A stretch of 64,000 bases of DNA from Endomicrobiales bacterium (lineage in GTDB: Bacteria > Elusimicrobiota > Endomicrobiia > Endomicrobiales > CAWCFT01), in the NCBI GenBank assembly GCA_963794945.1, contig CAWCFT010000008.1:32001-96000 (forward strand), given 5' to 3'. The notes under the pieces were generated by a model, which was given only the letters and a program-made list of their open reading frames with translations, had not been told where the DNA came from and made no database searches. The position numbers and the translations under genes are program-made. How positions within the stretch are numbered: position 1 is the stretch's first letter; every line of letters begins with the position of its first letter. Below, piece after piece: positions 3,186 through 60,220 of this stretch.

Positions 3186-3258
3186 CTTTAGAGAGTAAGA
3201 GAACTGAGCTGCCGCATTAAGCGCAACTCTGCTATTCTCTTACTCTCTATCTCTCTTA
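3186..3258. repeat. Intergenic inverted tandem-repeat hairpin (AGAGAGTA-like unit)
   Basis: agagagtaagagaactgag ... ctctgctattctcttactctct. Confidence 0.6.
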
Positions 3259-3383
3259 GAGCTGATCCCAAAGGACCAACTGATTATAGCAATTACAAAT
3301 TAACTCGCTGATTATGACGTATATCGGCCTTTCGGTCTATATGATCATAGCTAAACAATTACTACATTTGTTTGAATGAAATA

Positions 3384-3674
3384 CTATTCTTCTTCTCTCT
3401 GTTCTATATTGATGACTACTCCGCCGACTTTTCCCACCACCCAGTTATAGAGCCATGATATAAGCGCTATGCCAACGAACATAATAACTGTATAAAGCAC
3501 AACGAATATGAGCCAGGAAAGCAGTTTTGCACCGAACGCGAGATCCTTCGCAATTTCAGTTGGAAAAAGAAAGAACGTAAAAATACCGATTACCGCACCG
3601 AGGATACCGAACACAACGGGAACATTCTTCAACAGTGATTTGACAGCAATGTTTTTTACTTCATAAGCAGCCAT
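3384..3674 (-). CDS. Small two-TM membrane protein (DUF3566-like)
   Basis: 96 aa, two hydrophobic helices, LYN..GG motif, GGAGG RBS. Confidence 0.6.
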   Translation of the reverse strand: MAAYEVKNIAVKSLLKNVPVVFGILGAVIGIFTFFLFPTEIAKDLAFGAKLLSWLIFVVLYTVIMFVGIALISWLYNWVVGKVGGVVINIEQREEE

Positions 3675-3894
3675 GATTCCTCCTTTTTATTTTGCAGAAT
3701 CTCTTCTGCAGTTCTCAACTTAACTCTTCTTTCAGTAACACCTGCTTCTTTCAACCACCTCCTCGGAATTTTTGAATAATAACAAGTTTTACTTTATTTT
3801 TAAATCAGTTTTAAAAATTATAGCAGAGATGCCATTGTTTGTCAATGACAGCATTATAATTAATGAACATTAAGACTCTATATATAATTTTCAA

Positions 3895-4887
3895 TTACTT
3901 TTTATAGAGCTTCTTCATGTCATCAAGCGACATAGGCTTGTAATCACCGGCATGTCCATTCGTGCCAAAATCTAGCATTTTTGTCTCTATTAGCGCAGCC
4001 AGCTGTTCGCGGGCGGGTCCGAGGTAATCGCGCGGGTCAAATTTTTCCGGTTGGGTCGCGAACACTTCCCTTATCGCACCGGTCACGGCAAGCCTTCCGT
4101 CTGTGTCAACGTTTATCTTAGAAACCCCCATCTTTATGGCTTTCTTGAGGTGTTCCATGGGAACGCCCGTAGCGCCCGGCATCTTGCCGCCGTATTTGTT
4201 GACTTTGTCTATTAATGCCTGCGGCACAGATGAAGCGCCGTGAAGCACGAGAGGAATGTCGATAAGCTTGCGAACCTTCTCGAGCACGTCAAAAGCGAGT
4301 TCTTTGCTGCCTTTGAATTTGTACGCGCCGTGCGATGTGCCGATGGCTATTGCGAGCGCGTCTAGCTTGGTCGCATCAACGAACTTTTTTGCTTCATCCG
4401 GGTCTGTAACATGGATCGAGCCTGAACCTACGCCGTCTTCTATTCCGCCTAAGCGCCCTATCTCGCCTTCAACAGTTACGCCGTATTGGTGCGCGTACTC
4501 AACAACCGAGCGAGTCACTTTGACGTTGTAATCGAAATCGGAAGCGGTTTTGCCGTCTTCCATAAGCGAACCGTCAATCATGACCGACGAAAAGCCGAGG
4601 TCTATCGCCTTTTTGCAGGAATCAAGCGAATTGCCATGGTCAAGGTGCATCGCGGTCGGTATGTCCGGATTCTCTATAACGGCGGCCTTCATGAGATAGC
4701 CAAGGTATGTGAAGTTTGCGTACTTGAGGGCTCCGCGGCTGGCCTGTATTATTACGGGTGATTTTGTTTTCTGGGCGGACTGCATTATCGCCTGGACCTG
4801 CTCCATGTTGTTAACATTGTAGGCCCCTACTCCATAGCCTTTTTTTCTTGCTTCTTCTAAGATCTGCTTCATTGGTACAAGTGCCAT
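3895..4887 (-). CDS. fba: Fructose-1,6-bisphosphate aldolase class II
   Basis: HLDHG, SSVMIDGS, AIGTSHGAYK, LVLHGAS and KINVDTD motifs. Confidence 0.97.
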   Translation of the reverse strand: MALVPMKQILEEARKKGYGVGAYNVNNMEQVQAIMQSAQKTKSPVIIQASRGALKYANFTYLGYLMKAAVIENPDIPTAMHLDHGNSLDSCKKAIDLGFSSVMIDGSLMEDGKTASDFDYNVKVTRSVVEYAHQYGVTVEGEIGRLGGIEDGVGSGSIHVTDPDEAKKFVDATKLDALAIAIGTSHGAYKFKGSKELAFDVLEKVRKLIDIPLVLHGASSVPQALIDKVNKYGGKMPGATGVPMEHLKKAIKMGVSKINVDTDGRLAVTGAIREVFATQPEKFDPRDYLGPAREQLAALIETKMLDFGTNGHAGDYKPMSLDDMKKLYKK

Positions 4888-5057
4888 TTTACTTTCTCCT
4901 TTTTTTGTTTATGATCAAGCCGCAAGAGGCGCAAGCCCAAACAAATCCGGACCGCAAGACTCTATGCTACTTCAATGCGCGATGCACCCAGTTCTCAAAT
5001 TATATACTAAATTGTACGAAATAATTCTCAGCTAGTGGTGAAAATATTGTGAATATA

Positions 5058-6068
5058 TTATTTTTTTTCTTTTTTCGCCTTCACATCTTTCTTGCCGGAG
5101 GGCTTATCCTCGAAAGTACCCATCTTCCTGAACTTATCGTAACGGTCACGAGCGATCTCGTCCGGTGTATGTTTTGAGAGCTCTTTGATATGTTTAATGA
5201 GGCTTTCTTTGATCTTCTTCGCCGTAAACTGGTAATCGCGGTGAGCGCCGCCCAGCGGTTCTTCGATGATTTCGTCTACTACACCAATCTTCTGCAAGTC
5301 CTGGGCAGTGATCTTGAGTGCCGTCGCGGCATCGGCGGCCTTTGGCCGCGTCACGGAAAAGTATCGCCGCGCACCCTTCGGGTGATATTACTGAATAATA
5401 GGCATTCTCGAGCATCAGTATCCTGTTCGCCACACCGATCCCCAAAGCTCCGCCCGAACCGCCCTCACCTATCACAACGCATACTATGGGCACCCTGAGG
5501 TCTGACATCTCCCTTAGGTTCCTTGCTATTGCTTCGGCCTGCGCCCGCGTTCTTCAGCGGCTATACCTGGATATGCGCCGGGTGTATCAACGAACGTTAC
5601 CACGCTTAGCCCGAATTTTTCTGCGAGCTTCATTATCCTCAAAGCTTTCCTGTAACCTTCGGGATGAGCCATCGCGAAGTTGCGGTCAAGATTTTCCTGA
5701 AGGCTGCGTCCTTTCTGGTGTCCTATTACAGCTACCGGCATACCATCCAACGAGCCTATTCCGCATATCATCGCTTTGTCATCTGTGAAAGACCTGTCGC
5801 CGTGAAGCTCGATAAAATCGGTGAGCATGAGCCTTATGTAATCCAGAGAGAACGGGCGTTTTGGGTGCCTTGCGAGCTGCACCCTCTGCCACGTGCTCAA
5901 CGACCCGTATATCTGGTTTTTCATCACATCAAGTTTTTCTTCGAGCGCCTTGATCTCTCCGGAATGGTCCATCGTTTCTTCCGGCCCGGGATTTCTAAGG
6001 TTTAATATCCTTTCTTCAAGCTCGATTATTGGTTTTTCAAATTCCAACCCTTTTATTTCTTCTGCCAT
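5058..6068 (-). CDS. accA: Acetyl-CoA carboxylase carboxyltransferase alpha (two frameshifts, ~5540 and ~5340)
   Basis: Fragments with [40 protein letters not shown] and EPLGGAHRD in three frames. Confidence 0.95.
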
Positions 6069-6130
6069 TAGTGAAACCTCATTTTATTTATAATTTTCAG
6101 GGTCTTTGTCTGCAATGTTCACATCTTGAT

Positions 6131-10885: not shown

Positions 10886-11422
10886 TGAACCTCCGCGCAG
10901 CAAGACTGCGCGGTATCAAAGGTCAAAGAAATTGAAGAGCTGTAGTTGCTTTATTTGCTCTTTGTTTCCCTGCTTTGCAACGTAGGCGCGAATCACTTCT
11001 TTATTGCCGCCTTCTCCTACTGTTGCTACAAAGTATCCGTCGCTCCAGAGTTCGCCGCCCCAAAGTTCCTTCTTTAACTCTGGATGTCTCCGGAAAAGCT
11101 CTCTCGCTGTCAAGCTTTTGATTAGTCTTATTACTTGTCCTGGCGAGAACTTTGGCGCTACGCTTATCAGATAGTGGACGTGATTCGCGTCTATCCCTAT
11201 CTGCTCAAACTCTATCTCGTAGCGCTCTTCAATTTCTTTGCTTATTTCAACGAGGCTATGACAGCGGTCAGAATGCCCGAATATAGCCTTCCTATATTTG
11301 ACTGGCGTTACAAAATGATAGTGTATCTGATACCCACTGTGCTCTGTCTTTTTGACCGCTCTCATAGCCTCTATTATACCTTAGCGGTAACCCCGCAGCA
11401 AGACTGCGGGGAATGGTCAAGT
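10886..11422 (-). mobile_element. IS200-type insertion sequence (tnpA only)
   Basis: Subterminal hairpins ccgcgcag-caaga-ctgcgcgg (~10893-10913) and ccccgcag-caaga-ctgcgggg (~11391-11411); no target duplication; 537 bp. Confidence 0.92.
10916..11365 (-). CDS. tnpA: IS200/IS605-family Y1 (HUH) transposase
   Basis: YHFVTPVKYR, HVH (HUH), LWSDGYFVATVG, catalytic Y in IRAYVAKQ. Confidence 0.96.
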   Translation of the reverse strand: MRAVKKTEHSGYQIHYHFVTPVKYRKAIFGHSDRCHSLVEISKEIEERYEIEFEQIGIDANHVHYLISVAPKFSPGQVIRLIKSLTARELFRRHPELKKELWGGELWSDGYFVATVGEGGNKEVIRAYVAKQGNKEQIKQLQLFNFFDL

Positions 11423-13607: not shown

Positions 13608-13624
13608 ATTGTTCTCCCTTTGTC

Positions 13625-13724
13625 AGCTATAAGCTGTAAGCTTTAAGTTATAAGATAAATACCAAACCAACAAGGGTATGGTCTGTTGTTTTTACTTACA
13701 GCTTAAAACATAAAGCTTATTACT
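13625..13724. repeat. Inverted heptamer-repeat hairpin, type A (TAAGCTn)
   Basis: agctata agctgta agcttta agttata ... cttacag cttaaaa cataaag cttatta. Confidence 0.8.
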
Positions 13725-13731
13725 GTAGTTA

Positions 13732-14503
13732 TCATCCGAACTTTCCGGAAAGATATTCTTCCGTCCTTTTATCTTTAGGCACTGTGAACATCTTTTCTGT
13801 TTGACCAAACTCTATAAGCTCTCCCAGATACATAAAAACAGTGTAATCTGAGACCCTCGCCGCCTGCTGCATATTGTGAGTCACAATGACTATAGTATAG
13901 TCTTTTTTTAGCTCCAGTATCAATTCTTCTATCTTTTTTGTTGATATCGGGTCAAGGCTCGCGCATGGTTCATCGAAGAGGATCACTTCAGGCTCAACCA
14001 CCAGGCACCTGGCGATGCATAGCCTCTGCTGCTGGCCTCCCGAAAGCGAAAGAGCGGACGAATCAAGCCTGTCTTTCACTTCTTCCCAAAGGGCCGCTTT
14101 CCTAAGCGATGCCTCAATCTTTTCTTCCACCGAGTTCTTATCGTTCTCGCCGTTTATCTCCAGTCCGTATATAAGGTTCTGGTATATGCTTTTGGGGAAC
14201 GGGTTGGGCTTCTGGAAAACCATTCCCACCCGCCGTCTTATGTCAACTACGTCCATTTCCCGGGCATTGATGTCTTTGCCGTCAAGGTAAATATGCCCTT
14301 CGAGCCGGGTGTGGGGTATAAGGTCGTTCATCCTGTTGAGCAGCCTTATAAAAGTTGATTTACCGCAGCCGGATGGGCCTATTATCGCTGTCACGCGGTT
14401 CTCGTAAATGTTAAGGTTGATATCTTTAAGCGACTGTTTCAGCCCGTAAAAAAAGTTCACATTTCTCCGAATGCATCCTGGCGAGTTTAATATTAGTGTC
14501 CAT
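13732..14503 (-). CDS. pstB: Phosphate ABC transporter ATPase (5' frameshift near 14470)
   Basis: [41 protein letters not shown]; likely start ATG at 14503. Confidence 0.95.
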
Positions 14504-15345
14504 AAGAGCTCCTGTTCCTCTGCCTGAAGAAAATTGCAACGGCCGACATTGAAAGCACGAGTATAAGCAGCACCAGCGAGCATCCGTACGCGATCACGGT
14601 CTGCTGGGCCGGGTGAGTGCCCTCGGTCATAAGCGCGTATATGTGATATGGCAATGCCATAGTTTCGGATAATACAGAGCCTGGATAACCTCTCATGTAG
14701 AACGTAGCTGCTGTAAAAAGTATCGGAGCGGTTTCGCCCGCGGCCCTTCCAATGCCTATTATAACGCCTGTCAGTATGCCCGGCAGTGCCGTAGGTATGA
14801 CGATCTTTTTTATGGTCTGCCACTGCGTGGCCCCCAAAGCAAGCGACGCCTCCCGCAAAGATTGCGGCACAGCGATCAGCGCCTCCTGGGAGGCAGATAT
14901 TATTGCCGGAAGAATAAGGATACCTAGCGTAAGGCTTCCTGAAAGTATAGAAACGCCGAACCCGAAAAATTTCACGAAAACCGCGAGGCCAAATAGACCA
15001 AACACAACGGAAGGCACGCCTGCCAGATTATTTATACTCATTCTTATAATGTTTACTGCGAAACCTTTAGGGCTGTACTCGGTAAGGTATATCGCACACG
15101 CGAGCCCCATGGGAAGAGCAAAAATCACCGACCCTAGTGTAAGGTAAAAAGTGCCTACTATGGCCGGTGCGACACCGCCTTTTGTCATGCCGTTGCGGGG
15201 TATCTCCGTAAGGAACTCCCAGCTTATGGCATTGAAACCTTTTGAAATAATGAAATATAGTATGCTCCCTAAAAAAAAGAGAGTGATTATTACACTTAAT
15301 ATAATGCAGCGTAAATCCAATGTTCTGGTATATTTTATTTTTCAT
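14493..15345 (-). CDS. pstA: Phosphate ABC transporter permease PstA (5' frameshift)
   Basis: [31 protein letters not shown]-terminus [11 protein letters not shown] lies in another frame. Confidence 0.94.
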
Positions 15346-15362
15346 AGGATTAATCCCGAACT

Positions 15363-15458
15363 AATCAAAAATCAAACATCAAATATCAAAAATTAAGTTA
15401 ACAGCTTCAATAAATCACAACCTTCATTTTTGAACTTTGATTCTTGATATTTGATATT
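15363..15458. repeat. Inverted heptamer-repeat hairpin, type B (ATCAAAn)
   Basis: atcaaaa atcaaac atcaaat atcaaaa ... tttgaac tttgatt cttgata tttgata. Confidence 0.85.
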
Positions 15459-15459
15459 T

Positions 15460-16344
15460 CTATCTGCTTAACCCCAGCTTTATTCTATATTTTCTGCTTA
15501 TCATCTCGGCAACTATATTGAAAACCATAGTCACAAGGAACAGTATCAGGCCGATCGCGAAAAGCGCACTGTAGTGCGTACTTCCCATGACTGCCTCGCC
15601 CATCTCGGCGGCTATGGTAGATGTCATCGGCCTTACGGGGTCGAGATATGACTTGGGAATAACCGCAGCACCACCCGAAACCATCAGGACAGTCATTGTT
15701 TCCCCGACTATCCTGCTTAAACCAAGAATGATGGATGTTGAAATGCCCGAGCCTGCCGCAGGTATAACGACTTTAGTCAGCGTCTGCCAGCGGTTCGCGC
15801 CTAGCGCGTAGGATGCTTCCTTAAAGCTCATGGGAACATAGCTAAGCGCATCTTCCGCAAGGCTCGAAATAGTAGGTATCGCCATGATGCCTAAAACAAC
15901 GCTACCGGTCAATGCGCACATGCCGGTGGGTATACTAAAAAGGTTCTGAATAAAGGGGGCTACAACAACCATCCCGAAAAAACCGAACACTATCGAAGGG
16001 ATGCCTGACAATATTTCGATCGCGGGTTTGAGTATACTTCTCTGTTTTTGGCCGGCAAGTTCATAAACATATAGAGCGCTTCCTATTCCGAGTGGCACGC
16101 TCACGGCCATGGCGCCCAGAGTTACCCATATGGAAGCGAGTATTAGAGGAAGTATCCCGTATTCAGGTGGGTCGTAAGTCGGGTACCAGCTTTTCCCAAG
16201 AATAAACTTAAATATCCCTACTTCATGGAAAATGGGCAGGCCTTCTTTGAACAGGACTATCGTGATCCCCAATAGGAACAAAAGTGAAGAGAACGCTAAA
16301 GCGGCGAAAATCCACTCATATATTTTTTCTTTTAACCGGTACAT
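15460..16344 (-). CDS. pstC: Phosphate ABC transporter permease PstC
   Basis: EILSGIPSIVFG, EASYALGA, RIVGETM. Confidence 0.96.
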   Translation of the reverse strand: MYRLKEKIYEWIFAALAFSSLLFLLGITIVLFKEGLPIFHEVGIFKFILGKSWYPTYDPPEYGILPLILASIWVTLGAMAVSVPLGIGSALYVYELAGQKQRSILKPAIEILSGIPSIVFGFFGMVVVAPFIQNLFSIPTGMCALTGSVVLGIMAIPTISSLAEDALSYVPMSFKEASYALGANRWQTLTKVVIPAAGSGISTSIILGLSRIVGETMTVLMVSGGAAVIPKSYLDPVRPMTSTIAAEMGEAVMGSTHYSALFAIGLILFLVTMVFNIVAEMISRKYRIKLGLSR

Positions 16345-16354: not shown

Positions 16355-16494
16355 AAAAAAACAATTTCAGCCAATACATGAAACCTAAGCTATCGTTTCT
16401 TCCCGCCGGTCGCTCGAGCTTACCAGTTAGAAGCTTTCGGAAGCCAGGCTCACGTGGCACAACAAGTAGTTGCTTGTTGTGTTCGGCTGAAATT
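16355..16494 (-). ncRNA. Candidate structured cis-regulatory RNA in the pstC leader
   Basis: 10-bp closing stem aatttcagcc/ggctgaaatt; internal hairpins cacaacaag/cttgttgtg and agctt/aagct; U-run just before the pstC RBS. Confidence 0.5.
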
Positions 16495-16505
16495 AAGTCC
16501 TGTTA

Positions 16506-16588
16506 AAACCCGGATTACACAGACCGGCTAGTATTATACAAGGGAGGCAAGTATAATATTTACCAAAGTCTGTGTAATCGAGGGTTTA
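16506..16588 (-). other. Long stem-loop 3' of pstS (probable mRNA-stabilising or attenuating hairpin)
   Basis: aaaccc..gattacacagac ... gtctgtgtaatc..gggttt. Confidence 0.6.
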
Positions 16589-16602
16589 TAATAAATATTC
16601 CT

Positions 16603-17429
16603 TTACTTAAGGCTTACAAAACCTTCTTCTTCAACTATTTTCTGGCCATCTTTGCTAAGTATGAACTCAATAAGATCCTTCGCTGTTCCTTTGGGCTCGC
16701 CATTCGTGTACATGAATAGGGGCCTTGAATACGGGTACTTACCTGTCAGAACCGTTTCAGAACTCGGAGTTACTCCTTCAATTTTGAGTGCTTTTACTGA
16801 ATCAGAAATATATCCCATACCAACGTAGCCGATCGCGCCAGGGGTCTTCGCAACCATCGAGGCAACGGCCTGGTTTGAAGCCTGCATAAGAGCGTCGGAA
16901 CGAACTTTCATCCCGTGCAAGGCAAGGCTTCCGAACGCTTCAAATGTTCCCGAAGCGCTGTCGCGAGACACAACTACTATCGGGCCCGATCCGTGTCCAA
17001 GCTCAGACCAATCGGATATCTTGCCAGTAAATATTTCCATTACATGTTTTTTAGTCATCCCCGACATTGCGTTTTCCGGGTTAACAATGACCGCTATTCC
17101 GTCCATAGCTATAACATGAGCCTTCGGGTCCCTGCCGTTGCTCGCCGCCTGCTGGAGCTCGGCATCTTTTATCGCTCTTGATGCATCTGCTATATCGCAG
17201 GTTCCTGCGATTATCGAAGCTATTCCTACTCCAGAACGCCGCCGCGTACTGTAATATCGGCATCGGGGTTATTGTTCATGAACGTCTCGGCCGCTTTCTG
17301 CGCGATGGGCAGAACTGTGGTCGAACCTTCAAGAACTATCTTTTTAGACTTCCCTGCGGCGAAGGATGTTACTCCCAACGCGGGGAACATCACTGCGCAA
17401 GTAATAAGCAAACTTATAAATTTCTTCAT
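16603..17429 (-). CDS. pstS: Phosphate-binding protein PstS (frameshifts ~17235 and ~17145)
   Basis: EGSTTVLP, DGIAVIVNP, SRDSASGT, YPYSRPLFMY across fragments. Confidence 0.93.
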
Positions 17430-25617: not shown

Positions 25618-25621
25618 CATC

Positions 25622-25734
25622 AGTTCAAAAGATCAAGAGTTCAAGGTTCAAAGTTGGCGCCTTAACCACTAATCATGATCAAGTTTTGTTAAAATTACCT
25701 TTGAACTTTTGGACCATTGAACCCTTGAGCTTTT
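25622..25734. repeat. Inverted 7-8-mer repeat hairpin, type C (GTTCAAn)
   Basis: gttcaaaa gatcaaga gttcaag gttcaaa ... tttgaac ttttggac cattgaac ccttgagc. Confidence 0.8.
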
Positions 25735-25738
25735 AGTT

Positions 25739-26807
25739 ATGAACCGAACAATATTTTTCTTATCCCTTCTAATGTTTTCGCTGTACTGCAATTCCGGCGC
25801 AAATGAAACACGTTACTACCAAAAACTTGCCACGGGCGACATAAACTGTCTTTTGTGCCCCAGGAACTGCGTTCTGCGCGAAGGCCAAACCGGTGTGTGC
25901 CGCACTAGAAAGAACGTCAACGGCAAACTTGAGAGCCTAGTGTACGGCAAACTCGTTTCTGTAAACATTGACCCAATAGAAAAGAAACCCCTCTTCCATT
26001 TCCTACCCAGAACACCCACTTTTTCCATAGCTACTGCCGGCTGTAACCTTCGCTGCGTTTTTTGCCAGAACTGGGAAATCTCACAGGCCGAACCAGGCGA
26101 CGTACGGGCGCAAAACGTTTCACCTGAAGAGCTAATCGCCGCCGCAAAGAAAAATAATTGCCCATCGATATCCTATACATATTCCGAGCCGGTAGCTTTC
26201 TACGACTACATGTACGATTCGGCAATGCTCGCAAGAAAGAACGGCATAAAGAACGTTCTTGTAACGTGCGGCTACATCAACCCGGAACCATTGAAAGACC
26301 TGTCAAAATTCCTGGACGCTGCGAACGTTGACCTCAAGGGCTTCTCGGACAATACGTACAGGTGGGTCAGCTGCGACACAACTGGCGCCTGTGCTTGAGA
26401 CATTGAAGGTCCTAAAAGAAAACGGTGTATGGCTTGAAGTAGGCTATCTTGTTATACCTTCAGTCAACGACAGCCCTAAGGAAATGAAGGGCCTTATGGA
26501 CTGGATAGTAAAAGACCTCGGTAAAGACGTGCCCGTGCATTTCCTCCGTTTTTTCCCAAGGCACAAACTGACTAATCTCCCGCCGACACCCGTGGAAACG
26601 CTTGATCAGGCGTATAGGCTTGCAAAGGCAGCGGGCATTAATTACGTTTATATCGGGAACGTGCCGGGATCGAAATACGAAAACACTTATTGCCCGAGAT
26701 GCAAAAATATGCTAGTTGAAAGGAAAGGCTACTTCATAGAAGAATTCAATATAGTTAACGGGCACTGCAAGTTTTGCGGACAGAAGATACCGGGGGTATG
26801 GAAATAG
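25739..26807 (+). CDS. amrS: AmmeMemoRadiSam system radical SAM enzyme (frameshift ~26375)
   Basis: CLLCPRNC, DPIEKKPLFHF, GCNLRCVFCQNWEIS, YIGNVPG..NTYCP.C. Confidence 0.93.
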
Positions 26808-26912
26808 AAAATCAAATATCAAAATTTTAATGTTAAAGATACAAGTCAACATTTAAAGTGTTTTTACTTATTAAAGCCGTTAACCTTAATTTTGATATTT
26901 GATGTTTGATAT
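26808..26912. repeat. Inverted heptamer-repeat hairpin, type B
   Basis: aaatcaaatatcaaaatt ... gttaaccttaattttgatatttgatgtttgatatt. Confidence 0.8.
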
Positions 26913-26927
26913 TGCGAGGGAAAGAAA

Positions 26928-28454
26928 ATGAAATACAAACCTTATTTATCTATCTTTTTATGTATGTCCATGTGTTGCTGCGGCAATGCCTCTGATACTA
27001 GAAAACCCGCTGTTGCGGGCCAGTTCTACCCAGCAAACCCCAATGTGCTCAGATCGGATATAGCTTCTTACCTGTCAAGAGTGCCAGAACAAAAAATTCA
27101 GGGCACACCGGTAGCTTTCCTCGTGCCGCACGCTGGGTACGAGTATTCGGCTCAAACCGCCGCCTATTCGTATTGCCTGCTGTCAGGAATGAATGTCAAA
27201 AATATCGTCATTCTAGGCAATAGCCATCATTTCGGTCTTTCAAAAGCCGCTGTTTATCCGTCAGGGAAATTCGACTCCCCAATAGGCGCTTTAGAGATCA
27301 ACGAGGCGCTGGCTCGTAAAATAATTTCAGAAAGCCCTCTTTTTGAGGAGAACAGAATGCCGCATGGCCCCGAACACTCGCTTGAAGTACAGGTCCCATT
27401 CCTGTTGATGACCATGAAAAATATAAGCATCGTACCTATACTTATGGGCAATTCCAATTTTTCTCTGTATGACTGCCAAAAGGCCGGAGAAGCAGTCGCA
27501 AAAGCGATAAAAGACCTTGGCCTTGAAGGTACAACCGTCATTATTGCGTCAAGCGACCTATCGCATTATCCCTCATGGGCAAATGCGAATATGTCGGACG
27601 CCGCCTCACTCAAGGCAATAGGTAACTTTGACCCGTCAGCGCTAGAAAAAGTCAATTCAAGCATCATGTCCGCTTCGGTCCAAAACTTAGTATGCACTTT
27701 ATGCGGTATTGAGGATGTTTTCGCCGCTATGTACGCAGCAAAAGCGCTCGGCGCTGATAAAGCGCAGGTTTTGCATTACGAAAATTCCGGAGACGTAACC
27801 GGGGATAAATCACGGGTGGTCGGTTATGGAGCGGCGGTATTTTATAAGGAAGGAACAAATACTACTCAGGGCAAACGCCCTGCAACGGAGAAAAATATGA
27901 GCAATTTCAGCGTCAGTGAAAAGAACCAGAAAGAACTGCTTAAAGTCGCAAGGTTGTCCATCGGTAATTATTTGAAAACAAAAAAACTGTCTAATTACAA
28001 GACATCCGACCCCGAGCTGCTGACACCTGCCGCCGTGTTTGTCACGCTTACCCAGAACAGCGCCCTGCGCGGCTGCATTGGCACGACTGAACCGCACGCG
28101 CCGCTTTACGAAGCGGTTAACCAGCTGGCTGTCGCGGCTGCGTTCGAGGATTACCGTTTCAGCCCTATGACAGAAGCCGAGCTTCCGAAAACCCACATAG
28201 AGATATCAGTGCTTTCGCCGCTCACGCGCGTCAGGAGCGCCGACGAGATAAAACCGGGTGTACACGGCGTTGTGGTACGGCAGGGCGGCAGGAGCGGCCT
28301 TTTCCTACCGCAGGTGTGGGAACAGATACCCGGCAAGGAAGAATTCCTCAACGAACTCTGCTGGCAGAAAGCCGGCCTTCAGCCTTCAGCGTGGAAAGAC
28401 CCCAAAACTGAACTGTATATATTCACTGTATTCGCTTTTGAAGAACCGAAATAA
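26928..28454 (+). CDS. amrB: AmmeMemoRadiSam protein B (MEMO1) fused to protein A (AMMECR1)
   Basis: RKPAVAGQFYP, PHAGYEYS, EHSLEVQ, SSDLSHY, VVGY; then VFVTL..LRGCIG, EISVLS, FLPQVW. Confidence 0.93.
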   Translation: MKYKPYLSIFLCMSMCCCGNASDTRKPAVAGQFYPANPNVLRSDIASYLSRVPEQKIQGTPVAFLVPHAGYEYSAQTAAYSYCLLSGMNVKNIVILGNSHHFGLSKAAVYPSGKFDSPIGALEINEALARKIISESPLFEENRMPHGPEHSLEVQVPFLLMTMKNISIVPILMGNSNFSLYDCQKAGEAVAKAIKDLGLEGTTVIIASSDLSHYPSWANANMSDAASLKAIGNFDPSALEKVNSSIMSASVQNLVCTLCGIEDVFAAMYAAKALGADKAQVLHYENSGDVTGDKSRVVGYGAAVFYKEGTNTTQGKRPATEKNMSNFSVSEKNQKELLKVARLSIGNYLKTKKLSNYKTSDPELLTPAAVFVTLTQNSALRGCIGTTEPHAPLYEAVNQLAVAAAFEDYRFSPMTEAELPKTHIEISVLSPLTRVRSADEIKPGVHGVVVRQGGRSGLFLPQVWEQIPGKEEFLNELCWQKAGLQPSAWKDPKTELYIFTVFAFEEPK

Positions 28455-28458
28455 ATAA

Positions 28459-28553
28459 AGTTATAAGCTGTAAGTCATAAGCTATAAGTAACCACCCTCA
28501 AGGCTTATTCTGTTGGCCGTTAGCTTACAACTTAAAGCTTATAGCTTATAGCT
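28459..28553. repeat. Inverted heptamer-repeat hairpin, type A
   Basis: agttata agctgta agtcata agctata ... gcttaca acttaaa gcttata gcttata gct. Confidence 0.85.
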
Positions 28554-28559
28554 AATATT

Positions 28560-29208: not shown

Positions 29209-29220
29209 ATACTTCAACTA

Positions 29221-29330
29221 AGTTCAAGGTTCAAGGTTTAAAGTTCAAAAGTTACTATCAAACTCAACAACGTATGTTATTAGTTGTTAAAACATCGTGA
29301 TTGAACCCTTGAACCTTTGAGCTTTGAACC
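29221..29330. repeat. Inverted heptamer-repeat hairpin, type C
   Basis: agttcaa ggttcaa ggtttaa agttcaa ... ttgaacc cttgaacc tttgagc tttgaacc. Confidence 0.85.
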
Positions 29331-29676: not shown

Positions 29677-29689
29677 GAATAACTCCTAA

Positions 29690-29768
29690 TTATAAGATTT
29701 GAATATTAAAAATTTAGAAAATTAGGGCCCTTAAAATCTTCCAATTTTCATAATCTTTAATTTATAAT
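29690..29768. repeat. Inverted 8-9-mer repeat hairpin, type D (AAGATTn)
   Basis: taagattttgaatattaaaaatttagaaaatt ... aatcttccaattttcataatctttaattt; near-copy at 31430. Confidence 0.75.
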
Positions 29769-30998
29769 TTATTCTAGAACGGTATACGCGCCTTCTCTGT
29801 GTTGTGTAAGGTCAAGGCCGATCACCTCGTCCCTTTCTTCGACTCTTACACCCACAGTCGCGTCCACAATTTTATATATTACGTATGTGACTATAAGCGT
29901 GTATATCACGGTTACGAGAACGGCAAAAGCCTGGATAGCCAGCTGTTTAGGATTACCGTACAATAAACCATTGGCAGCTGAAGGATTGATCAGCTTCGTA
30001 GCGAATATTCCCGCGAGAAGCGTCCCAAGTATCCCACCGACACCGTGTACACCGAAAGCATCAAGTGAATCATCATAACCGAGCTTTGGTTTGATCAAAC
30101 CAACCGAAATAAAGCATATGGTGCTCGCTAAAACACCCACGACCATACCTGCAAGAGGCGTTATATAGCCTGATGCCGGAGTTACGGTCGCAAGGCCCGC
30201 TATTGAACCGGTCACAACGCCGAACGTGGTCGGCCTGCCGTTGTGTATCCATTCAAGAAGCGCCCAAACAGCCCCGCCCGCGGCGGCAGCCGCGTTTGAA
30301 GCCACGAACGTGCTGACAGCCAAACCGTTAGCTGCAAGGGCCGAGCCGGCGTTAAAGCCGAACCAGCCGAACCATAGAAGCGCCGCGCCAAGCACCGTGA
30401 ACGGCAGGTTATGAGGCGGCACAGGCACATTTTCGTAGCCTTTGCGTTTGCCTATCACAAGAGCCGTAACGAGGGCCGCTATGCCGGCGGTCGTATGGAC
30501 AACTATGCCGCCGGCAAAATCAAGCACGCCCATATTCTTGAGCCAACCGCCTGTACCCCAAACCCAATGCGCAACCGGGTCGTAAACAAACGTCGCCCAA
30601 AGAACAGAAAACAAAAGAAAAGCCGAGAATTTCATCCTCTCGGCAAACGCTCCTATTATCAACGCGGGTGTTATAACCGCGAACATTGCCTGAAATATCA
30701 TGAACGCCTGGTGAGGGATAGTGCCGGCGTAAGCCGCATAGGGATCAAGGCCCACACCATTCAACCCAAGCCACTGAAGTCCGCCTATAAAACCATTTCC
30801 CGGAGAAAACGCCAAACTGTACCCAAAAAGCATCCACTGCAAACTCAAAACGCACAACGCCGCGAAGCACTGCATCAGAACACCAAGTATGTTCTTACGC
30901 CTGACCATGCCACCGTAAAAAAAAGCCAATCCCGGTGTCATTAACATTACTAGACCTGCCGCGGCTAAAACAAACGCCGTATCGCCTGCATTGATCAT
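29769..30998 (-). CDS. amtB: Ammonium transporter
   Basis: [51 protein letters not shown]. Confidence 0.97.
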   Translation of the reverse strand: MINAGDTAFVLAAAGLVMLMTPGLAFFYGGMVRRKNILGVLMQCFAALCVLSLQWMLFGYSLAFSPGNGFIGGLQWLGLNGVGLDPYAAYAGTIPHQAFMIFQAMFAVITPALIIGAFAERMKFSAFLLFSVLWATFVYDPVAHWVWGTGGWLKNMGVLDFAGGIVVHTTAGIAALVTALVIGKRKGYENVPVPPHNLPFTVLGAALLWFGWFGFNAGSALAANGLAVSTFVASNAAAAAGGAVWALLEWIHNGRPTTFGVVTGSIAGLATVTPASGYITPLAGMVVGVLASTICFISVGLIKPKLGYDDSLDAFGVHGVGGILGTLLAGIFATKLINPSAANGLLYGNPKQLAIQAFAVLVTVIYTLIVTYVIYKIVDATVGVRVEERDEVIGLDLTQHREGAYTVLE

Positions 30999-31414: not shown

Positions 31415-31429
31415 AGTTTACTCCTTATT

Positions 31430-31508
31430 ATAAGATTTTGAAGATTACAACAATTTGAAAATTATGGCCTTAGAAATCTTCCAATTTTCATAATCTTTAA
31501 TTTTTAAT
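31430..31508. repeat. Inverted repeat hairpin, type D (duplicate of 29690)
   Basis: taagattttgaagattacaacaatttgaaaatt ... aatcttccaattttcataatctttaattt. Confidence 0.75.
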
Positions 31509-32888
31509 TTATTCTAGAACCGTATACGCGCCTTCTTTGTGCTGCGTGAGGTCAAGGCCGACGATCTCGTCTTTTTCAGTGCTCTGACGCCAACGATGAT
31601 GTCAACCAGCTTGCAGATAACGAAAGTCATAACGAAACTATAAACTATAGTTACCCCAACGGCTTTAAGCTGAACAATGAATTGGGCCGGGTTACCAAAA
31701 AACAATCCATCCGCTCCAGCAGGATTGATGGCTTTAGAAGCAACAACCCCGTAGCTAGAGCTCCCCAGATTCCTCCGATACCGTGAACACCGAAGGCGTC
31801 GAGAGAATCATCATATCCGAACTTAGGCTTAATGAAAGCAACCATTATGAAGCAGATAACGCTCACCATAAAACCGATTATTATCGCTGGAATTACTCCT
31901 ACGAATCCGGACGCCGGGGTTATGGCTACAAGCCCGGCAACAGCCCCGGTCGCAACACCCAGAGTAGTAGGCTTACCGTTATGGAACCATTCGAGAAGCG
32001 CCCAGGCAAGGCCAGCTGCGGCAGCTGCCGTGTTCGTCACAACAAAAGCGCTTACCGCAAGGCCGCTCGCGCTAAGCGCCGAGCCCGCGTTAAAACCGAA
32101 CCATCCGAACCACAAAAGGCCCGCACCGATCACTGTAAAAGGTATATTATGAGGAGGAATAGGCTGATTCTCGTAGCCTTTTCTTTTTCCAAGAAAATAG
32201 CCGTTACGATAGCCGCTATACCGGCATTGATATGAACGACCGTTCCGCCCGCGAAATCAAGCGCTCCCATGTCCCTTAGGAAACCGCCGACTCCCCAAAC
32301 CCAGTGAGCAACGGGGCAATAAACGAAAGTTGACCAGAGAATAGAGAAAAGCAGGAAAGCCGAGAATTTCATCCTCTCGGCAAAAGCGCCTACTATAAGC
32401 GCGGGAGTTATTACCGCGAACATAGCCTGGAATATCATGAAAAGCTGGTGCGGAATGGTTGGGGATAATCCGCATACGGAGTACAGCCCGACACCGTTAA
32501 GGCCTATCCATTGAAGCCCTCCCCAAAAGCCTTTAGCCGGCCCGAAAGCCAGGCTGTACCCGAAAAGGACCCACTGGAGGCTGATGACACAAAGCATTAT
32601 TCCGCACTGCATGAGAATGCTTAATACATTTTTTTTCCTTACAAGGCCGCCATAGAAAAGCGCCAGGCCAGGTATGGTCATAAGCATTACAAGCGCGGTG
32701 GAAGTTAAAACCCAAGACGTGTCTCCCGTATCTATTTTAGAAGAAGTTGGGGCGGGTGCGGCGGGGACAGCGGCAACCGCTGCCGGCTGGTTCTGAACTG
32801 CGGACTCCTCGGCTGATATCATCACCGGCGCGACTAGAGAGGCTAAAACGAACGTCAAAAGCAATATCCGGAAATATTTTACTAACAT
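31509..32888 (-). CDS. amtB: Ammonium transporter with signal peptide, second copy (several frameshifts)
   Basis: [47 protein letters not shown] across fragments. Confidence 0.92.
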
Positions 32889-40198: not shown

Positions 40199-40230
40199 AC
40201 TTTAATCGTATTTGTCAAGTATTGCAATCT

Positions 40231-40338
40231 GATCAAAGGATTAAAAGTTCAAGGTTCAATTCAACTACTAAATCAAAATTAACAAGCAACGGCCTATATC
40301 TTACCTTTGAACCTTGAACCCTTGAACTTTTCAACCCT
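40231..40338. repeat. Inverted repeat hairpin, type C
   Basis: gatcaaag gattaaaa gttcaag gttcaa ... tttgaac cttgaacc cttgaac ttttcaac. Confidence 0.8.
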
Positions 40339-40341
40339 GCT

Positions 40342-42410: not shown

Positions 42411-42482
42411 CAATTACAAATCGCAAATTAATGTTATTCTTTACGTCATGAATCAGTAATATGCAAGTTGCAATCTGTAATT
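42411..42482. repeat. Short inverted heptamer-repeat hairpin
   Basis: aattaca aatcgca aatt ... atatgca agttgca atctgta att. Confidence 0.55.
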
Positions 42483-44574: not shown

Positions 44575-44646
44575 GTTCAAGAGTTCAAGTGATTAAAGTT
44601 CAAAGGTTTTGATTTTATTGAACCTTTTAACCATTGAACCTTGCAC
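44575..44646. repeat. Inverted repeat hairpin, type C
   Basis: gttcaaga gttcaagt gattaaa gttcaaa ... ttgaacc ttttaacc attgaacc ttgcac. Confidence 0.8.
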
Positions 44647-46368: not shown

Positions 46369-46387
46369 GATTACCTCTTTATTAGAA

Positions 46388-46473
46388 TAAGTTATAAGCT
46401 ATAAGCGTTAAGAAAATTACGCCAAAATCAAAAAAAGTCTTTACTTACAGCTTACAACTTAATGCTTATAACT
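46388..46473. repeat. Inverted heptamer-repeat hairpin, type A
   Basis: ataagtt ataagct ataagcg ttaaga ... cttacag cttacaa cttaatg cttataa. Confidence 0.85.
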
Positions 46474-52160: not shown

Positions 52161-52181
52161 ATGAATACTCAGTTTAAAAGT

Positions 52182-52258
52182 TAGCTATAAGCTGTAAAGT
52201 TTTAAGCTTTAAGAAAAATCTCCGTTGCCTTTTTTACAACTTATCGCTTAAAGCTTAG
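52182..52258. repeat. Inverted heptamer-repeat hairpin, type A
   Basis: ttagct ataagct gtaaagtt ttaagct ttaaga ... tttacaa cttatcg cttaaag cttag. Confidence 0.75.
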
Positions 52259-52368
52259 TGGCGACCCCTCCGGCTAAAGCCGGAGGCTCCTTAATCCTGT
52301 CGCCCTCCCGGGACGTCCGCCTATGGCGGGCCTCCCCCGTCTGAAGACGGGAGATTTCATGTCGCGGG
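52259..52368. mobile_element. Putative non-autonomous IS200/IS605-type palindromic element (PATE-like)
   Basis: Hairpins cctccggc-taaa-gccggagg and cccgtc-tgaa-gacggg at the two ends, ccgcc-tat-ggcgg in between; GC-rich and no ORF. Confidence 0.55.
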
Positions 52369-52369
52369 A

Positions 52370-53024: not shown

Positions 53025-53792
53025 TTATGATTGAGTGCCTTGTTTGATGTGATAATCAATTTTATTCTCATTGCAAAAAGATATTACTGTTCTAGTTAAA
53101 TTATTATAAAATTCCCTTGTATACTTAAATTCCGAAGATTTTACATTGTAATTTAATCTGCCGAAAATTATTTTATCTACAAATGAAACAGCTTCCAATA
53201 TTTTGTTTAAATCTTGGTCTATTAAATTAGGCGTGGGGTAAGGCTCCATACTTATCCAAGTCTTAAATCCTTTGTCATGCAACTGCTTAAGTGACTTTAT
53301 TCTATCCACGTAAGCTGCTGAATATGGTTCATATTCTTTTCTAAATTCTTCGTTTAATGAAACTAAAGTAATACCATATTCATTATTTTTACTGTGCCCA
53401 TTTTTTCGCCCAATTTCAGCAGGATAAACACCTTTTGTAAGCACAGTACATTTAATTTTATTTAGATTTAATTTATCAATAATCTTTGAGCTTAAATCAC
53501 ATATTTCATTCTGTTCATACATAAATGGATCTGTTGAAAAACACATATGAACATACTTTATTTGATTTTTATATTTAGGTATTTCTTTGTCCAAAAGCTC
53601 TAAAGCATTGGAAACTATTTTTGGTTTGCACCATTCTTCATAAGTTTTAATAACCCCACACCTTTTCTTCATCATATAAGCATAGCAGGGATACTTACAA
53701 CCATGAGAACACCCCTCAACATGATTTAAACAAAAATCAGAGTATTCCACAGCGCTTTTATAAAGCAATGATTTTCTTTGTATGTAGTTCAT
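53025..53792 (-). CDS. Radical SAM protein (SPL/Rv2578c-like) with a CX3CX3C motif
   Basis: NHVEGCSHGCKYPCY, FSTDPF, VLTKG, SMEPYP; low GC. Confidence 0.8.
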   Translation of the reverse strand: MNYIQRKSLLYKSAVEYSDFCLNHVEGCSHGCKYPCYAYMMKKRCGVIKTYEEWCKPKIVSNALELLDKEIPKYKNQIKYVHMCFSTDPFMYEQNEICDLSSKIIDKLNLNKIKCTVLTKGVYPAEIGRKNGHSKNNEYGITLVSLNEEFRKEYEPYSAAYVDRIKSLKQLHDKGFKTWISMEPYPTPNLIDQDLNKILEAVSFVDKIIFGRLNYNVKSSEFKYTREFYNNLTRTVISFCNENKIDYHIKQGTQS

Positions 53793-56558: not shown

Positions 56559-59500
56559 TCAAATGGACACGCTAGATTTATCAATCTCAGCCATGATTCT
56601 TTCTGTCTCTGTTAGGGCAACAATAATTTTCTGGTAATGCTCAATATCAGAGTTGGTCAGGGTACGGTCTTTACGATCTTTCAGCCACTTCTGGGCCGGT
56701 TGGTAACCGCCAATATAAAAGTTCCAAGCTGATTTAGGAACATTGCCAAAATATTGTTCCTTGTTAATATAGACATTGCTGTCTTTGTAAACAATTTTTT
56801 CAACAATATTTCACCGCCAACCGGGTAGGTTGTGATGAATTTGTTAACTTTAGGCGATTCAAGGAGGTGAAGGGAGCGCAGTTCAGCGCCAAGCTTTGCA
56901 AGCTCTTTGAAGATTTTTTTATCTTTCGGATATGGCACGCGCGGGAAATCAATTTTCAAAAATTCTTTATACTTATCGCGATACCCAGGAGAGTGTAAAA
57001 CTGCATAGATGTAGTCAAAAATATCCTCTGGTGTAACTCTGCCAACATTTTTTTCAATTTCATTGACGATTTCTTGTTTAAAATTTAAGATTTGTGTCTC
57101 ATCTTCATTATAAATATATAAAGGAAATTTAAACGAATTATCTGAAACAAAATGCTCATCAGAAATATGTTTAGATATGAAAATATAATCGCCCACACGT
57201 GAAGTTTCAATAGCGATATTATCTCTATTAAAGAAATTATCCATGACCTGCGAACGACTCCTTGAAAGAAAGTTTTTGTCATAATATATGTATCTGCAAT
57301 CAAAAGGCCTATAATCATGTTCTGTTAGGCAATTATCGTTATAATCAATTTTTAATACATTGTCATATTCCCAAGTAGTTTTTGGATTTAAATCATATTT
57401 CTGGATAATCTCTTTTAAAGAATATTTATTAGTGACAATATCTTCTATTCTATCACCTAGTATTTTTTTATCAAAATCAATAGAAATATTATCAACCTTA
57501 GTTTTTATTCCTGCCGAATACACATTGAATAAGTCTGTAACTGAAAAACTATAACCATATTCATCTTGTACGCTGAAATCTTTTGGTACAAAAAAATAAT
57601 ATGGTTCAGAGTAATTTAGTTTCTTCCATTTAATATTTTTTAAATCGTTTTCATTGAGTGCTTTGAATTTATCTTTTCTCTTGCCATATAATTCAGCATG
57701 ATGAACATTGCCGAGTTCCTTTTTATTGATCGCTTTACGCACGAATATTGAAATGGAAACACCTTGTTGAATATCAAAAACATTCTCATCTTTACCGCCA
57801 CCAGGCGCTTTTTCTTTTTTCTTAGAATTACCGTGTAAGTCAAGGATATAAATATCTTCAAATGTTTCAAGCAAGTGCTTCCTCATCTGGCGATGAGTAA
57901 TTCCATCTATGAAAGAATTGTTCGTTATCATAGCAACAATGCCATTGTTGTTTCTTTCAATGAAATGTTCTGAGAAACGAATAAATTTAATATAGTCATC
58001 GTCAAGATTTATTTTACGTTCTCCAAGATTTTTCTTGTAATCTTTAATAAGATTCAGTATCCACTCGCTTTTATTCGATGAACTAATGCTGTACGGCGGA
58101 TTACCGATTACAACCATAATAGGTGTTTGGTTTTTTATTACTGCCGCCTCTTTGGATTCTTCGGCTATGCTTTCGGCAAAACCAAAAGTCGCGAATAAGT
58201 CCGTTTGAGCGCCACTTTCTTCAAGCGAGTTCGTAAGATAAATACCGAGACGGCGGTTAAAGTGTATAAAACCAGTCTCCTTAAATGCCATACTCAACTT
58301 TAAATGAGCTATTGTATAGGGCGCCATCATAAGTTCAAACCCGTGCAGGCGCGGTAATAAATCGTGATGCACATAGGTTGTCCAGCGGCCTTTCTGATTA
58401 TTTTTAAGCAATCGTTGGTAGATGATTCGAATAGCGGCACTGATGAACGTTCCTGTACCAACAGCTGGATCAAGGATCTGAACCCGATGTTTACCTGTTT
58501 CCAATTTCGATGTATCGGCCAAACCAGCCACAAGGTTGAAATCTTTTTCAAGAACATAATCAACCGCGCGTACGATAAACCTCACAACAGGTAACGGCGT
58601 ATAGAAAGCGCCGAGCTTCTTGCGAAGTTCCGGGTCATATTCTTTCAAAAAGTCTTCATAAAAATGAATTACCGGGTCGGGACTTTCGTGAGTTTTACCC
58701 CATAAATCGTCTTCAAAATACTGTTTCATAAGTTCTGGGATATCGGCATGAGAAAAAACCATGCACAACTCATCTACTATATACTTAAGCCGCTCATCAA
58801 AATCTGTCCCCGCTATGTGATCAAAGAAATGCTGTAAAAGCGGGTTTGATTTTGGAACAAGGTCGCGGGCTTTTTGCCGCGAGAATTTTTCAGGGGTTTC
58901 GTCATAATAGCGGGCGATGAAAAGACCGTACACAAGAGTTTGCGCGTACATGTCAGCGAAAGATTCTAACGTTAAATCATGAACAAGCTGTTTTTTAATA
59001 GTTTCATAAACCTTTAGTATCTCGGCATTTTTGTCCGAATCAACTGAAAGAAATTGTTTGATGTTATCCCTGATTCTGCGGCCTTTGCCTCCCATAATTT
59101 TTGAGAGGTGTTCGCCGGATTTAATCGGTTCTTTTTGTGAATTTGCGAAATCTGTCAGGGATTTGGCAAGATGCTCGTAGTTTTCAGGCAGGGGAGTAAT
59201 CGTTCTAAAATTAATGTCGTAAGCCGCAATTTTTATAGGCTCTTCATAGCGTTTCCCATGTCTATAGAAACGAAATTCCAAATAATCAGTAAGCACTAGA
59301 TTTGTATACCCAAAATATCTTGCCATCTGGTCGGACTTTTCAATTTTATCCAGAGATACGCCGATATCTTTTGTCTCGATATAAAGCAATGGAATATCTT
59401 TAGTGCCAACAACAAAATCAGGTCTATTACCCTCAACTGCTTTGGGGTCATGGTCTATGCGTTGAATACTTATTTTTTCAAAAACACCTTCAAGCATAAT

Positions 59501-59593
59501 TTCAAAAGCAGTGCGATATCCCATTTCGGTTGTTTCTTCGCGGGAGAATTTGGCCGAAATTGCCTGAATGTAAGTTTCAAATATTTTTTGCAT
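56559..59593 (-). CDS. Fused restriction-modification enzyme, Type IIG/ISP-like (N6-adenine MTase + endonuclease + TRD; frameshift ~56810)
   Basis: RPDF..IETK nuclease motif, FYTP, ILDPAVGTGTF (motif I), IGNPPYS (motif IV), YRPFD, DFPRVP; corrected C-terminus IGGYQPAQKWLKDRK ends at 56559. Confidence 0.9.
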
Positions 59594-59620
59594 TTATTTT
59601 ATCCTATACTTGTCTGCGGA

Positions 59621-59661
59621 AAACAAAAAAACCACACCGCGCGCAATTCGCGCAATGTGGC
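59621..59661 (-). terminator. Intrinsic terminator-like hairpin between DUF190 and the R-M gene
   Basis: ccacattgcgcg-aatt-gcgcgcggtgtgg followed by TTTTTTGTTTT on the minus strand. Confidence 0.65.
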
Positions 59662-59755
59662 TTGGTTCTTACAGCATTTCTCTCCCAGTTATTATCAATT
59701 GCCATCATAGGCAGATTCTATCTCTTTTTTATCTGTTTTTCAAACCGGGCAGTCT

Positions 59756-60091
59756 TTATTTCCCCGCCCTGTACATGACCACGTTGGCTTTTTCGATGGT
59801 TATAAGACCGTCTATCACCATATCGTCAAGCTGCGGTATGAACTGGCTGATCTTCTCTTCGCTGTCGACAATTTCTATTATCACGGGCAGGTCTTCGGAA
59901 AGCCTCAATATTTTAGCCGTGTGCATGTGGCTCTTCGCCCCGAAACCCATAAAACCTTTTATGACCGTGGCCCCCGCCATGCTTTGTTTCTTGGCTAGAA
60001 GAACTATCTCTTCGTAAAGAGGTTTGCCGTTCCATTTATCCGCTTCGCCTATAAATATCCTCAATAATTTGCCGTCGCCCGGTATCTTCAC
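59756..60091 (-). CDS. DUF190 (P-II-like fold) protein
   Basis: LRIFIGE.D..G.PLY, AGATV.KG..GFG, LSEDLPVIIEIVD; typical crcB neighbour. Confidence 0.92.
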   Translation of the reverse strand: MKIPGDGKLLRIFIGEADKWNGKPLYEEIVLLAKKQSMAGATVIKGFMGFGAKSHMHTAKILRLSEDLPVIIEIVDSEEKISQFIPQLDDMVIDGLITIEKANVVMYRAGK

Positions 60092-60107
60092 ATATACCTC
60101 CAAATAC

Positions 60108-60220
60108 TAAGATTAAAAATCAAACATTAAATATCAAAATTAAGGTTAACAACTATTATTTTAAATGCTTTTGAATTTTGACGTGCAATTTTAATTTTTG
60201 ATTCTTGATATTTGATATCT
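60108..60220. repeat. Inverted heptamer-repeat hairpin, type B
   Basis: attaaaa atcaaac attaaat atcaaaa ttaaggttaac ... tttgatt cttgata tttgata. Confidence 0.85.

Follow-up and report, generated by a model that had tools for sequence, protein, structure and literature searches.

Periodic inverted-arm elements in the window and the genome

The window analysed here, i.e. a stretch of 64,000 nt (positions 32001-96000 of contig C8, CAWCFT010000008.1) from the Endomicrobiales assembly GCA_963794945.1, carries the pst genes, two amt-glnK pairs and core genes such as glmU, prs, rplY and pth, and its spacers hold hairpins composed of a left array of a short unit (7-8 nt), a spacer and the reverse-complement array. 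STRR is a name in use for heptamer repeats of this sort. A first-pass annotation had listed about 16 of these hairpins and read them as empty or decayed cassettes of a mobile or RNA-processing system, with similar arms flanking four-helix-bundle (TIGR02436-type) genes. For the present analysis the whole assembly (2.9 Mb, 86% complete) was scanned.

The array structure is present at all 16 listed sites. A detector based on local periodicity and on aligning one arm with its reverse-complemented neighbourhood recovered 15 of them, while the exception, the site at 52182, was recovered by arm models trained on the genome's own elements. The window hairpins are genuine periodic inverted-arm elements, and the original list, in which every site is a true one, lacks the element at 16490 and two solo arms (Table 1). 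At a score of 26 the detector gave nine matches in the window, compared with 0-2 in 20 local shuffles. When folded against dinucleotide shuffles, 14/16 elements reached z <= -2 on at least one strand; those at 29690 and 31430 did so on neither strand and, judged by eye, are paralogues within a duplicated amt-glnK junction, hence not independent. No Rfam family matched any of the 16 elements, tRNA being the only Rfam match.

Genome-wide, 189 period-7 elements were found compared with 2 in one shuffle in 100-nt blocks, which keeps local composition; their frequency is therefore about 90 times that of shuffled DNA. The same detector gave 56 elements of period 8 (1 in the shuffle) and 47 of period 9 (5 in the shuffle). 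The union of periods 7-9 comprises 223 matches, of which 156 fall into six unit classes, A-F, and 67, i.e. other repeats, rarer units and noise, remain unclassed. The arm models gave 480 arm matches versus 22 in the shuffle, corresponding to 174 short and 9 long pairs as well as 114 solo arms, counts that are circular for the training set since the models were trained on classed elements. The four recurring unit types named earlier, TAAGCTn, ATCAAAn, GTTCAAn and AAGATTn, are the classes B, A, D and C, respectively (exemplars: A, 15358; B, 46379; C, 48613; D, 44575), classes E and F having no script-assigned member in the window. The element at 3186 is a separate 8-nt type outside these four.

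Anatomy, polarity and placement

Classed copies have a median length of 92 nt and a predicted stem of median 25 bp, with at least 20 bp in 129/154, and the main units are AT-rich and without G runs. Polarity is fixed, the same unit strand coming first in 156/156 classed copies. With junction classes taken from gene calls made for this analysis, 142/148 elements lie at co-oriented junctions, which hold 86% of spacer bases (p = 1e-4), and only three at divergent junctions, which hold 9% (p = 9e-4); convergent junctions, again with 3/148, are not enriched. About one in 17 co-oriented junctions of the genome is occupied (142/2456). Among 145 co-oriented copies, 112 start <=20 nt from the upstream stop, 110 end <=30 nt from the downstream start and 96 fill the spacer almost wholly. 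Most copies extend from the stop of the upstream gene to the ribosome-binding site of the downstream one. The statement that the hairpins fill gaps between co-transcribed genes thus holds for the great majority, two window elements departing from it, i.e. 29221 at a convergent junction and 48621 between spoVG and tRNA-Gln. The statement that coding sequences are left untouched is too strong: within the bounds of the alignments, 42/145 copies overlap the upstream gene end by at least 3 nt, among them 46388 at the glmU stop, and five overlap the downstream start. The noted lack of U tails was borne out, as only 6/145 copies have a T run (four T in the 8 nt that follow the right arm).

The elements cluster in some operons (odds ratio 3.6). 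Neighbouring elements share their class in 15/45 cases versus 10.9 expected (p = 0.10), i.e. no significant local spread was seen, while the empties near two filled cassettes have those cassettes' class. Enriched words at the inner arm ends include a short motif apparently common to several classes. Outside the heptamer classes, another family of dispersed hairpins, whose arms are purine-rich and have G runs, was seen at C1:77875, C1:130371 and C4:183314.

Cassettes filled with PF05635 genes

Five genes of the genome match the PF05635 profile, which was also matched in the control, Bacteroides thetaiotaomicron, and arms are visible by eye at all five genes. The flanking arms are significant at p <= 0.02 for three of them and at p = 0.03 for a fourth; the fifth, with weak arms of another unit, is not significant. 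The four clear cassettes have arms of classes B, C, E and A, as in the empties; the arm models pair across three of them, and one has an extra empty element nested upstream. In the class B and class C cassettes, an arm contains the stop codon of either the upstream gene or the cargo. A PF05635 protein of this genome matches the pentamer 2GSC at E 4e-17.

The association extends well beyond this genome. Across the order, 43 of 66 PF05635-type open reading frames (ORFs) have significant inverted flanks, a set that includes the five above and leaves out two at contig edges. A sample of 80 loci from many phyla, with 79 ORFs scored, gave significant inverted flanks at 56/79 compared with 10/79 in the direct-orientation control, and 31 of these 56 are clearly periodic. 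Such arms do flank four-helix-bundle genes, as the first-pass annotation had it, and cargo-bearing versions exist in the very same genome. More than 30 unrelated unit words bracket PF05635 genes. The cargo is co-oriented with its upstream neighbour in 110/116 and with its downstream neighbour in 115/123 clear cases, against a background in which co-orientation is also high, and some cassettes lie between tRNA genes (by eye). At different sites the arm unit tracks the protein tree, with a nearest-neighbour similarity of 0.31 versus 0.20 (2000 permutations, p = 0.0005; 41/58 rows used, 17 weak-arm rows dropped).

Gene-less copies with shared loops

Within classes the loops align far above shuffles (64 pairs versus 2 at score 28). 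Further, 24 gene-less class A copies, 17 of which were used for training, share a common loop with two small GC-rich hairpins, and 7 more copies of this loop, with a related arm, are found in 400 kb of the relative G003; none of the shared-loop copies stands beside a cassette ORF. Empties have therefore been copied whole, so that the description of the hairpins as empty or decayed cassettes is very probably right in making them gene-less kin of cassettes and too narrow in that decay is only part of their history. Relative to transcription, both loop orientations occur, which is uninformative given the near-symmetry of the loop and its possible inversion through the arms.

Some loops later took up an IS200 copy or other repeats. 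Three copies of an IS200-type (Y1) transposase with identical ends lie at window positions 10916-11365, at C2:132520 and at C11:110065. The C11 copy sits in a class A loop, and on C2 shorter inserts with ends resembling those of these copies were seen in two elements of that class (73215, 74483).

Turnover at orthologous junctions

In 29 relatives of the order, the glmU-prs, prs-rplY and rplY-pth junctions either lack an element or hold different unit types, one arm alone or a pair of arms that do not match. In metagenome relatives whose flanking proteins are 81-96% identical, the latter two junctions have other units or none: prs-rplY is bare in this genome and at three metagenome loci, with one unit in L203 and another in L206, while rplY-pth carries a class D element in this genome and, in L203, a nested element with a different unit. 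The arms seen at rplY-pth in L018 (G038) and at glmU-prs in L011 and L016 are either two that are not complementary or a lone right arm, possibly replacement or decay intermediates. In relatives, the genes at pstCA, glmU-prs and similar junctions overlap or lie a few bases apart, and the junction of the metF fragment with DUF1646 is 5 nt long in two close relatives.

Orthologous junctions were compared with G003 (83 junctions; 580 kb of 3.4 Mb) and G008 (159 junctions; 588 kb of 2.7 Mb). Co-occupancy exceeds chance, with odds ratios of 5.8 and 4.7 (p = 0.011 each, values that overstate the significance because shared junctions cluster in operons and are not independent) and of 5.8 and 3.9 when both gaps exceed 10 nt. 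The unit differs at 13/13 junctions occupied in both genomes. One-sided occupancy is frequent, i.e. 7 and 9 junctions versus 6 shared in one comparison and 6 and 29 versus 7 shared in the other.

Filled, empty and bare alleles are all found among relatives. L044 is filled in G008 and empty here with the same class; L046, L052 and one G003 site are filled in the relative and empty here with another unit; L048 and L057 are filled in the relative and bare here. No target-site duplication was seen by eye at the closest junctions, the relatives being too distant for base-level empty sites, and the contigs of DNA run X1 cover the stretch in short pieces, none of which bridged an element.

A parallel at GxxExxY genes

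Inverted arms of 9-10-nt units are present at 8/9 full-length GxxExxY (PF13366) genes, i.e. the same design in longer units, at one of the gene types that the first-pass annotation had named for checking. About nine gene-less hairpins of this type occur in the genome, with one more in the window at 16490 (by eye).

Features of the window

Besides the elements collected in Table 1, the window contains GC-rich palindromic repeats of another family (52258-52350), which adjoin a class B element and have similar small hairpins in relatives' junctions. Split or frameshifted genes at 13732-14823 (pstB), 16603-17429 (pstS), 25739-26807 (radical SAM), 28561-29160 (membrane protein), 31651-32888 (amt) and 60127-60600 (crcB) suggest indel errors of the assembly rather than pseudogenes, judging from the sequence. 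Other features are a small GIY-YIG ORF (PF01541) between tRNA-Gln and glmU (48129-48452), a nitrogen cluster in which the two amt-glnK pairs are accompanied by an amino-acid permease with a fused P-II domain (29335-37777), and a type ISP-like restriction-modification gene beside a ParB-like gene (56681-59593).

Table 1. Inverted-arm elements and solo arms of the window (TPR, tetratricopeptide repeat; +/-, strand of the genes)
Positions	Element	Location and remarks
3180..3257	8-nt-unit inverted-arm element, outside classes A-F	between a no-family ORF and a histidine kinase gene (both -)
13624..13725	class B	pstB-phoU junction (-)
15358..15460	class A	pstC-pstA junction (-)
16490..16604	9-nt-type arms resembling GxxExxY arms (by eye)	pstS-pstC junction (-)
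25618..25741	class D	junction of dnaE and radical SAM gene (+)
26799..26917	class A	junction of radical SAM gene and AmmeMemoRadiSam B/A (+)
28454..28559	class B	3' of AmmeMemoRadiSam B/A gene, 5' of frameshifted membrane-protein ORF (+)
29218..29330	class D	convergent junction: frameshifted ORF (+), glnK (-)
29679..29785	class C, weak fold	amt-glnK junction (-); paralogue of 31427
31427..31516	class C, weak fold	second amt-glnK junction (-)
40224..40340	class D	between aldolase-like and amidotransferase-like genes (-)
42412..42482	short element, class E-like by eye (not script-classed)	junction of metF fragment and DUF1646 (-)
44575..44646	class D	rplY-pth junction (-); other unit types or none in relatives
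46379..46471	class B	glmU-prs junction (-); overlaps glmU stop codon
48613..48705	class C	between spoVG and tRNA-Gln (-)
52180..52266	class B	junction of rimI and TPR gene (-); adjoins a GC-rich repeat of a different kind
53554..53581	solo class A arm	found by arm models
60101..60224	class A	crcB-DUF190 junction (-)
60625..60656	solo class A arm	pdxA-crcB junction

Origin and possible mechanism

We consider it probable that about 150-190 gene junctions of this genome hold gene-less, non-autonomous offspring of PF05635 cassettes, which would be cut from the mRNA by RNase III. Common descent of empties and cassettes is very likely, while an active recognition of the repeat word by the four-helix-bundle protein is a tentative proposal at best. 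The full form would be a small promoterless cassette, i.e. a PF05635 gene between mirror-image arrays of a 7-8-nt unit, with the design of the ORF-bearing 23S rRNA intervening sequence (IVS), sited in mRNA and tRNA spacers. Such an element would be co-transcribed and its arms may pair into a stem of ~25 bp. RNase III, the gene for which is present in the genome, would cut this stem and the loop would be dropped, leaving both neighbours translatable, so that the element would be tolerated in core operons; our analysis thus suggests excision from the transcript and hence a low cost. The cassette's pentameric Avd-like protein, acting on the arm RNA of its own cassette, might assist in trans in the making of new copies and replacements, the copying chemistry perhaps being lent by a host or foreign polymerase or recombinase. 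This copying step is the weakest part of the mechanism.

It is tempting to speculate further on a transposase-free mobile class, in which the pentamer reads its own 7-nt word in RNA and drives copying or replacement at transcribed junctions, RNase III makes the insertions harmless, and GxxExxY nucleases run a parallel system with 9-10-nt words. Such a class, which we regard as rather unlikely in this full form, would cover bacterial heptamer repeats generally.

Several observations weigh against an origin from PF05635 cassettes with excision at the RNA level. On the mRNA strand, G-U mismatches are only weakly in excess over A-C mismatches (257 versus 208, p = 0.026), and strand-biased mutation predicts the same excess. 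No compensatory evolution was detected, as pairing with the own partner scored 31.6 versus 29.4 with classmates, was never best of class in 150 and gave p = 0.09 at equal threshold. Neither a reverse transcriptase (PF00078) in the 86% complete assembly nor a transposase or target-site duplication tied to the elements in this genome was found, and the S23p protein of Coxiella, as described in PMC4990558, is seemingly not made in vivo. For classes D and F, the assembly contains no filled cassette. The link between arm unit and protein is confined to close relatives, many belonging to a single family, and recognition accounts for it no better than plain co-inheritance. One cassette has been kept at one junction across three families with its unit drifting (L001, L037, L039), and therefore not all copies are active. 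Finally, the GxxExxY proteins are unrelated to the four-helix bundle yet have the same arm design in 8/9 cases, which means that the architecture is not specific to the four-helix bundle.

Alternative explanations

The alternative that survives best, unlikely as we judge it, is that the hairpins derive from cassettes and have since been retained by the host as signals for processing or stability that tune gene ratios within particular operons, position being what matters and not the unit. The occupation of the same junctions above chance with a different unit in all 13 cases would fit such a role, as would the clustering in some operons, and for the Correia and ERIC repeats an action on mRNA via RNase III or RNase E has been proposed, according to PMC2229807. 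However, hot or permissive operons yield the same co-occupancy, most occupied junctions are bare in the other genome, close relatives have the same operon without elements, and no element-specific compensation was seen.

We regard it as improbable that the elements are ordinary MITEs (miniature inverted-repeat transposable elements), moved as DNA by a trans-acting transposase (HUH/Y1 or DDE), the four-helix-bundle gene travelling as a passenger. Their size, the inverted arms at their ends, the copying of a shared loop as a whole unit and presence/absence are indeed MITE traits as set out in PMC2229807, and the genome has five Y1 transposase matches. However, each of the three identical IS200-type copies has ends of its own; a single one lies within heptamer arms, where it is inserted in the loop, and the other two Y1 genes have no heptamer arms. 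The numerous unrelated unit words would each need an enzyme and yet bracket PF05635 genes, divergent spacers are avoided, and target duplications were not seen by eye at the closest junctions. Among the 9 long arm pairs none encloses a transposase except for the inserted IS200 copy, DDE families not having been searched. REP/REPIN repeats (repetitive extragenic palindromes and their inverted pairs) with their associated tyrosine transposase (RAYT) were considered as well and rejected, none of the five Y1 matches having heptamer arms of its own, and an integron attC reading was dropped because the flanks are core genes.

That the elements arose where they stand, from slippage of the polymerase on heptamers together with inverted duplication and without a mobile parent, is very improbable. 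Slippage is the cause to which PMC4692102 ascribes the bacterial heptamer excess, and it would agree with the varying unit counts and the 114 solo arms, but it leaves unexplained the fixed polarity, the few genome-wide unit classes, the loops common to distant copies and the tie to two gene families; the shared loops already largely refute it. Intrinsic terminators or attenuators, for which stable hairpins just 3' of stop codons and pyrimidine-rich right arms might speak, are hardly credible given that T runs almost never follow the stem, that the ~25-bp stems are AT-rich, that convergent junctions are not enriched and that elements sit within junctions such as pstCA and glmU-prs, which in relatives overlap or span a few bases.

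Relationship to known systems

The closest counterpart of the proposed PF05635 cassettes is the 23S IVS of Coxiella burnetii, for which PMC4990558 describes a terminal stem of 28 bp, tandem heptamers ahead of the S23p ORF and a site for RNase III at the first of the repeats. Common to both are the PF05635 ORF in the loop of an inverted-repeat stem, the tandem heptamers 5' of the ORF, the orientation of the ORF in the sense of the host transcript and a patchy distribution. In contrast to the Coxiella IVS, the elements described here lie in mRNA and tRNA spacers instead of rRNA helices, use many unit words and occur as ~150-190 ORF-less copies versus five filled ones, all 16 window elements lacking an ORF; cutting at the first repeat is a feature of the Coxiella IVS, while here there are predicted stems and an RNase III gene. 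The window elements lie between protein or tRNA genes and not in an rRNA gene; the 23S rRNA gene was not found in this assembly, which leaves room for an rRNA copy of the element. In bacteria of the candidate phyla radiation, PF05635 ORFs are scattered over rRNA insertion sites, as reported in 10.1101/2024.02.27.582315.

A second relationship concerns the heptamer repeats of Xanthomonas and Nostoc. According to PMC4692102 (Rehm et al. 2015), Xanthomonas has ~185 per genome, mostly of four units and often as inverted pairs, lying between aligned ORFs and rarely between divergent ones. The strand rich in purines follows the stop codon, while its complement precedes the start, and the function of the repeats is described as unresolved. 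Tandem heptamers, inverted pairs and polar placement between aligned ORFs are thus shared with the elements reported here. By contrast, one G-rich word is read as a G-quadruplex there, while many AT-rich non-quadruplex words are used here; 83% of sites are common to two species there, while units are swapped between genomes here; and no tie of the repeats to a gene family was found in that account, while the present arms are tied to PF05635 genes.

Bacterial MITEs (Correia/NEMIS, ERIC, RUP, YPAL), as summarized in PMC2229807 (Delihas 2007), are <200 bp long, non-coding, intergenic and co-transcribed, with terminal inverted arms and a proposed action of RNase III or RNase E. The present elements resemble them in being short and non-coding, with terminal inverted repeats, many copies and presence/absence at orthologous sites. 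They differ in that the arms are tandem arrays of a changing unit, in that no fixed terminal dinucleotide, target duplication or matching transposase was found, and in that the putative parent cassette encodes no transposase.

The cassette protein, in turn, is related to the pentameric four-helix barrel Avd of diversity-generating retroelements (10.1101/2023.10.23.563531, PMC10053308). Avd serves a reverse transcriptase, and the first source reports that the pentamer binds an RNA stem-loop with all five protomers. Unlike in those retroelements, no PF00078 gene was found in the 86% complete assembly, and the cassettes are flanked by other genes within ~150 nt.

ORF-bearing IVS elements and unexplained heptamer repeats were already known, separately. 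A link between such arms and cassettes was not found in searches of an open-access library, supplements excluded, which does not establish its absence from print. The present analysis adds the exchange of units at junctions occupied in both genomes, the amplification of gene-less copies as whole units, the GxxExxY parallel in the same genome and the negative compensation results.

Significance

The large PF05635 family has a solved pentamer but no assigned function, and heptamer repeats between bacterial genes are, as PMC4692102 has it, abundant and unexplained; a tie between the two opens them to direct tests. That unit words are exchanged at the same junctions suggests a process of replacement outside the known MITE and IVS models. 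If the elements are indeed cut from mRNA, about one in 17 co-oriented junctions of this genome would be a processing site laid by a selfish element, and a cassette origin, if true, would give the heptamer repeats of bacteria a testable source.

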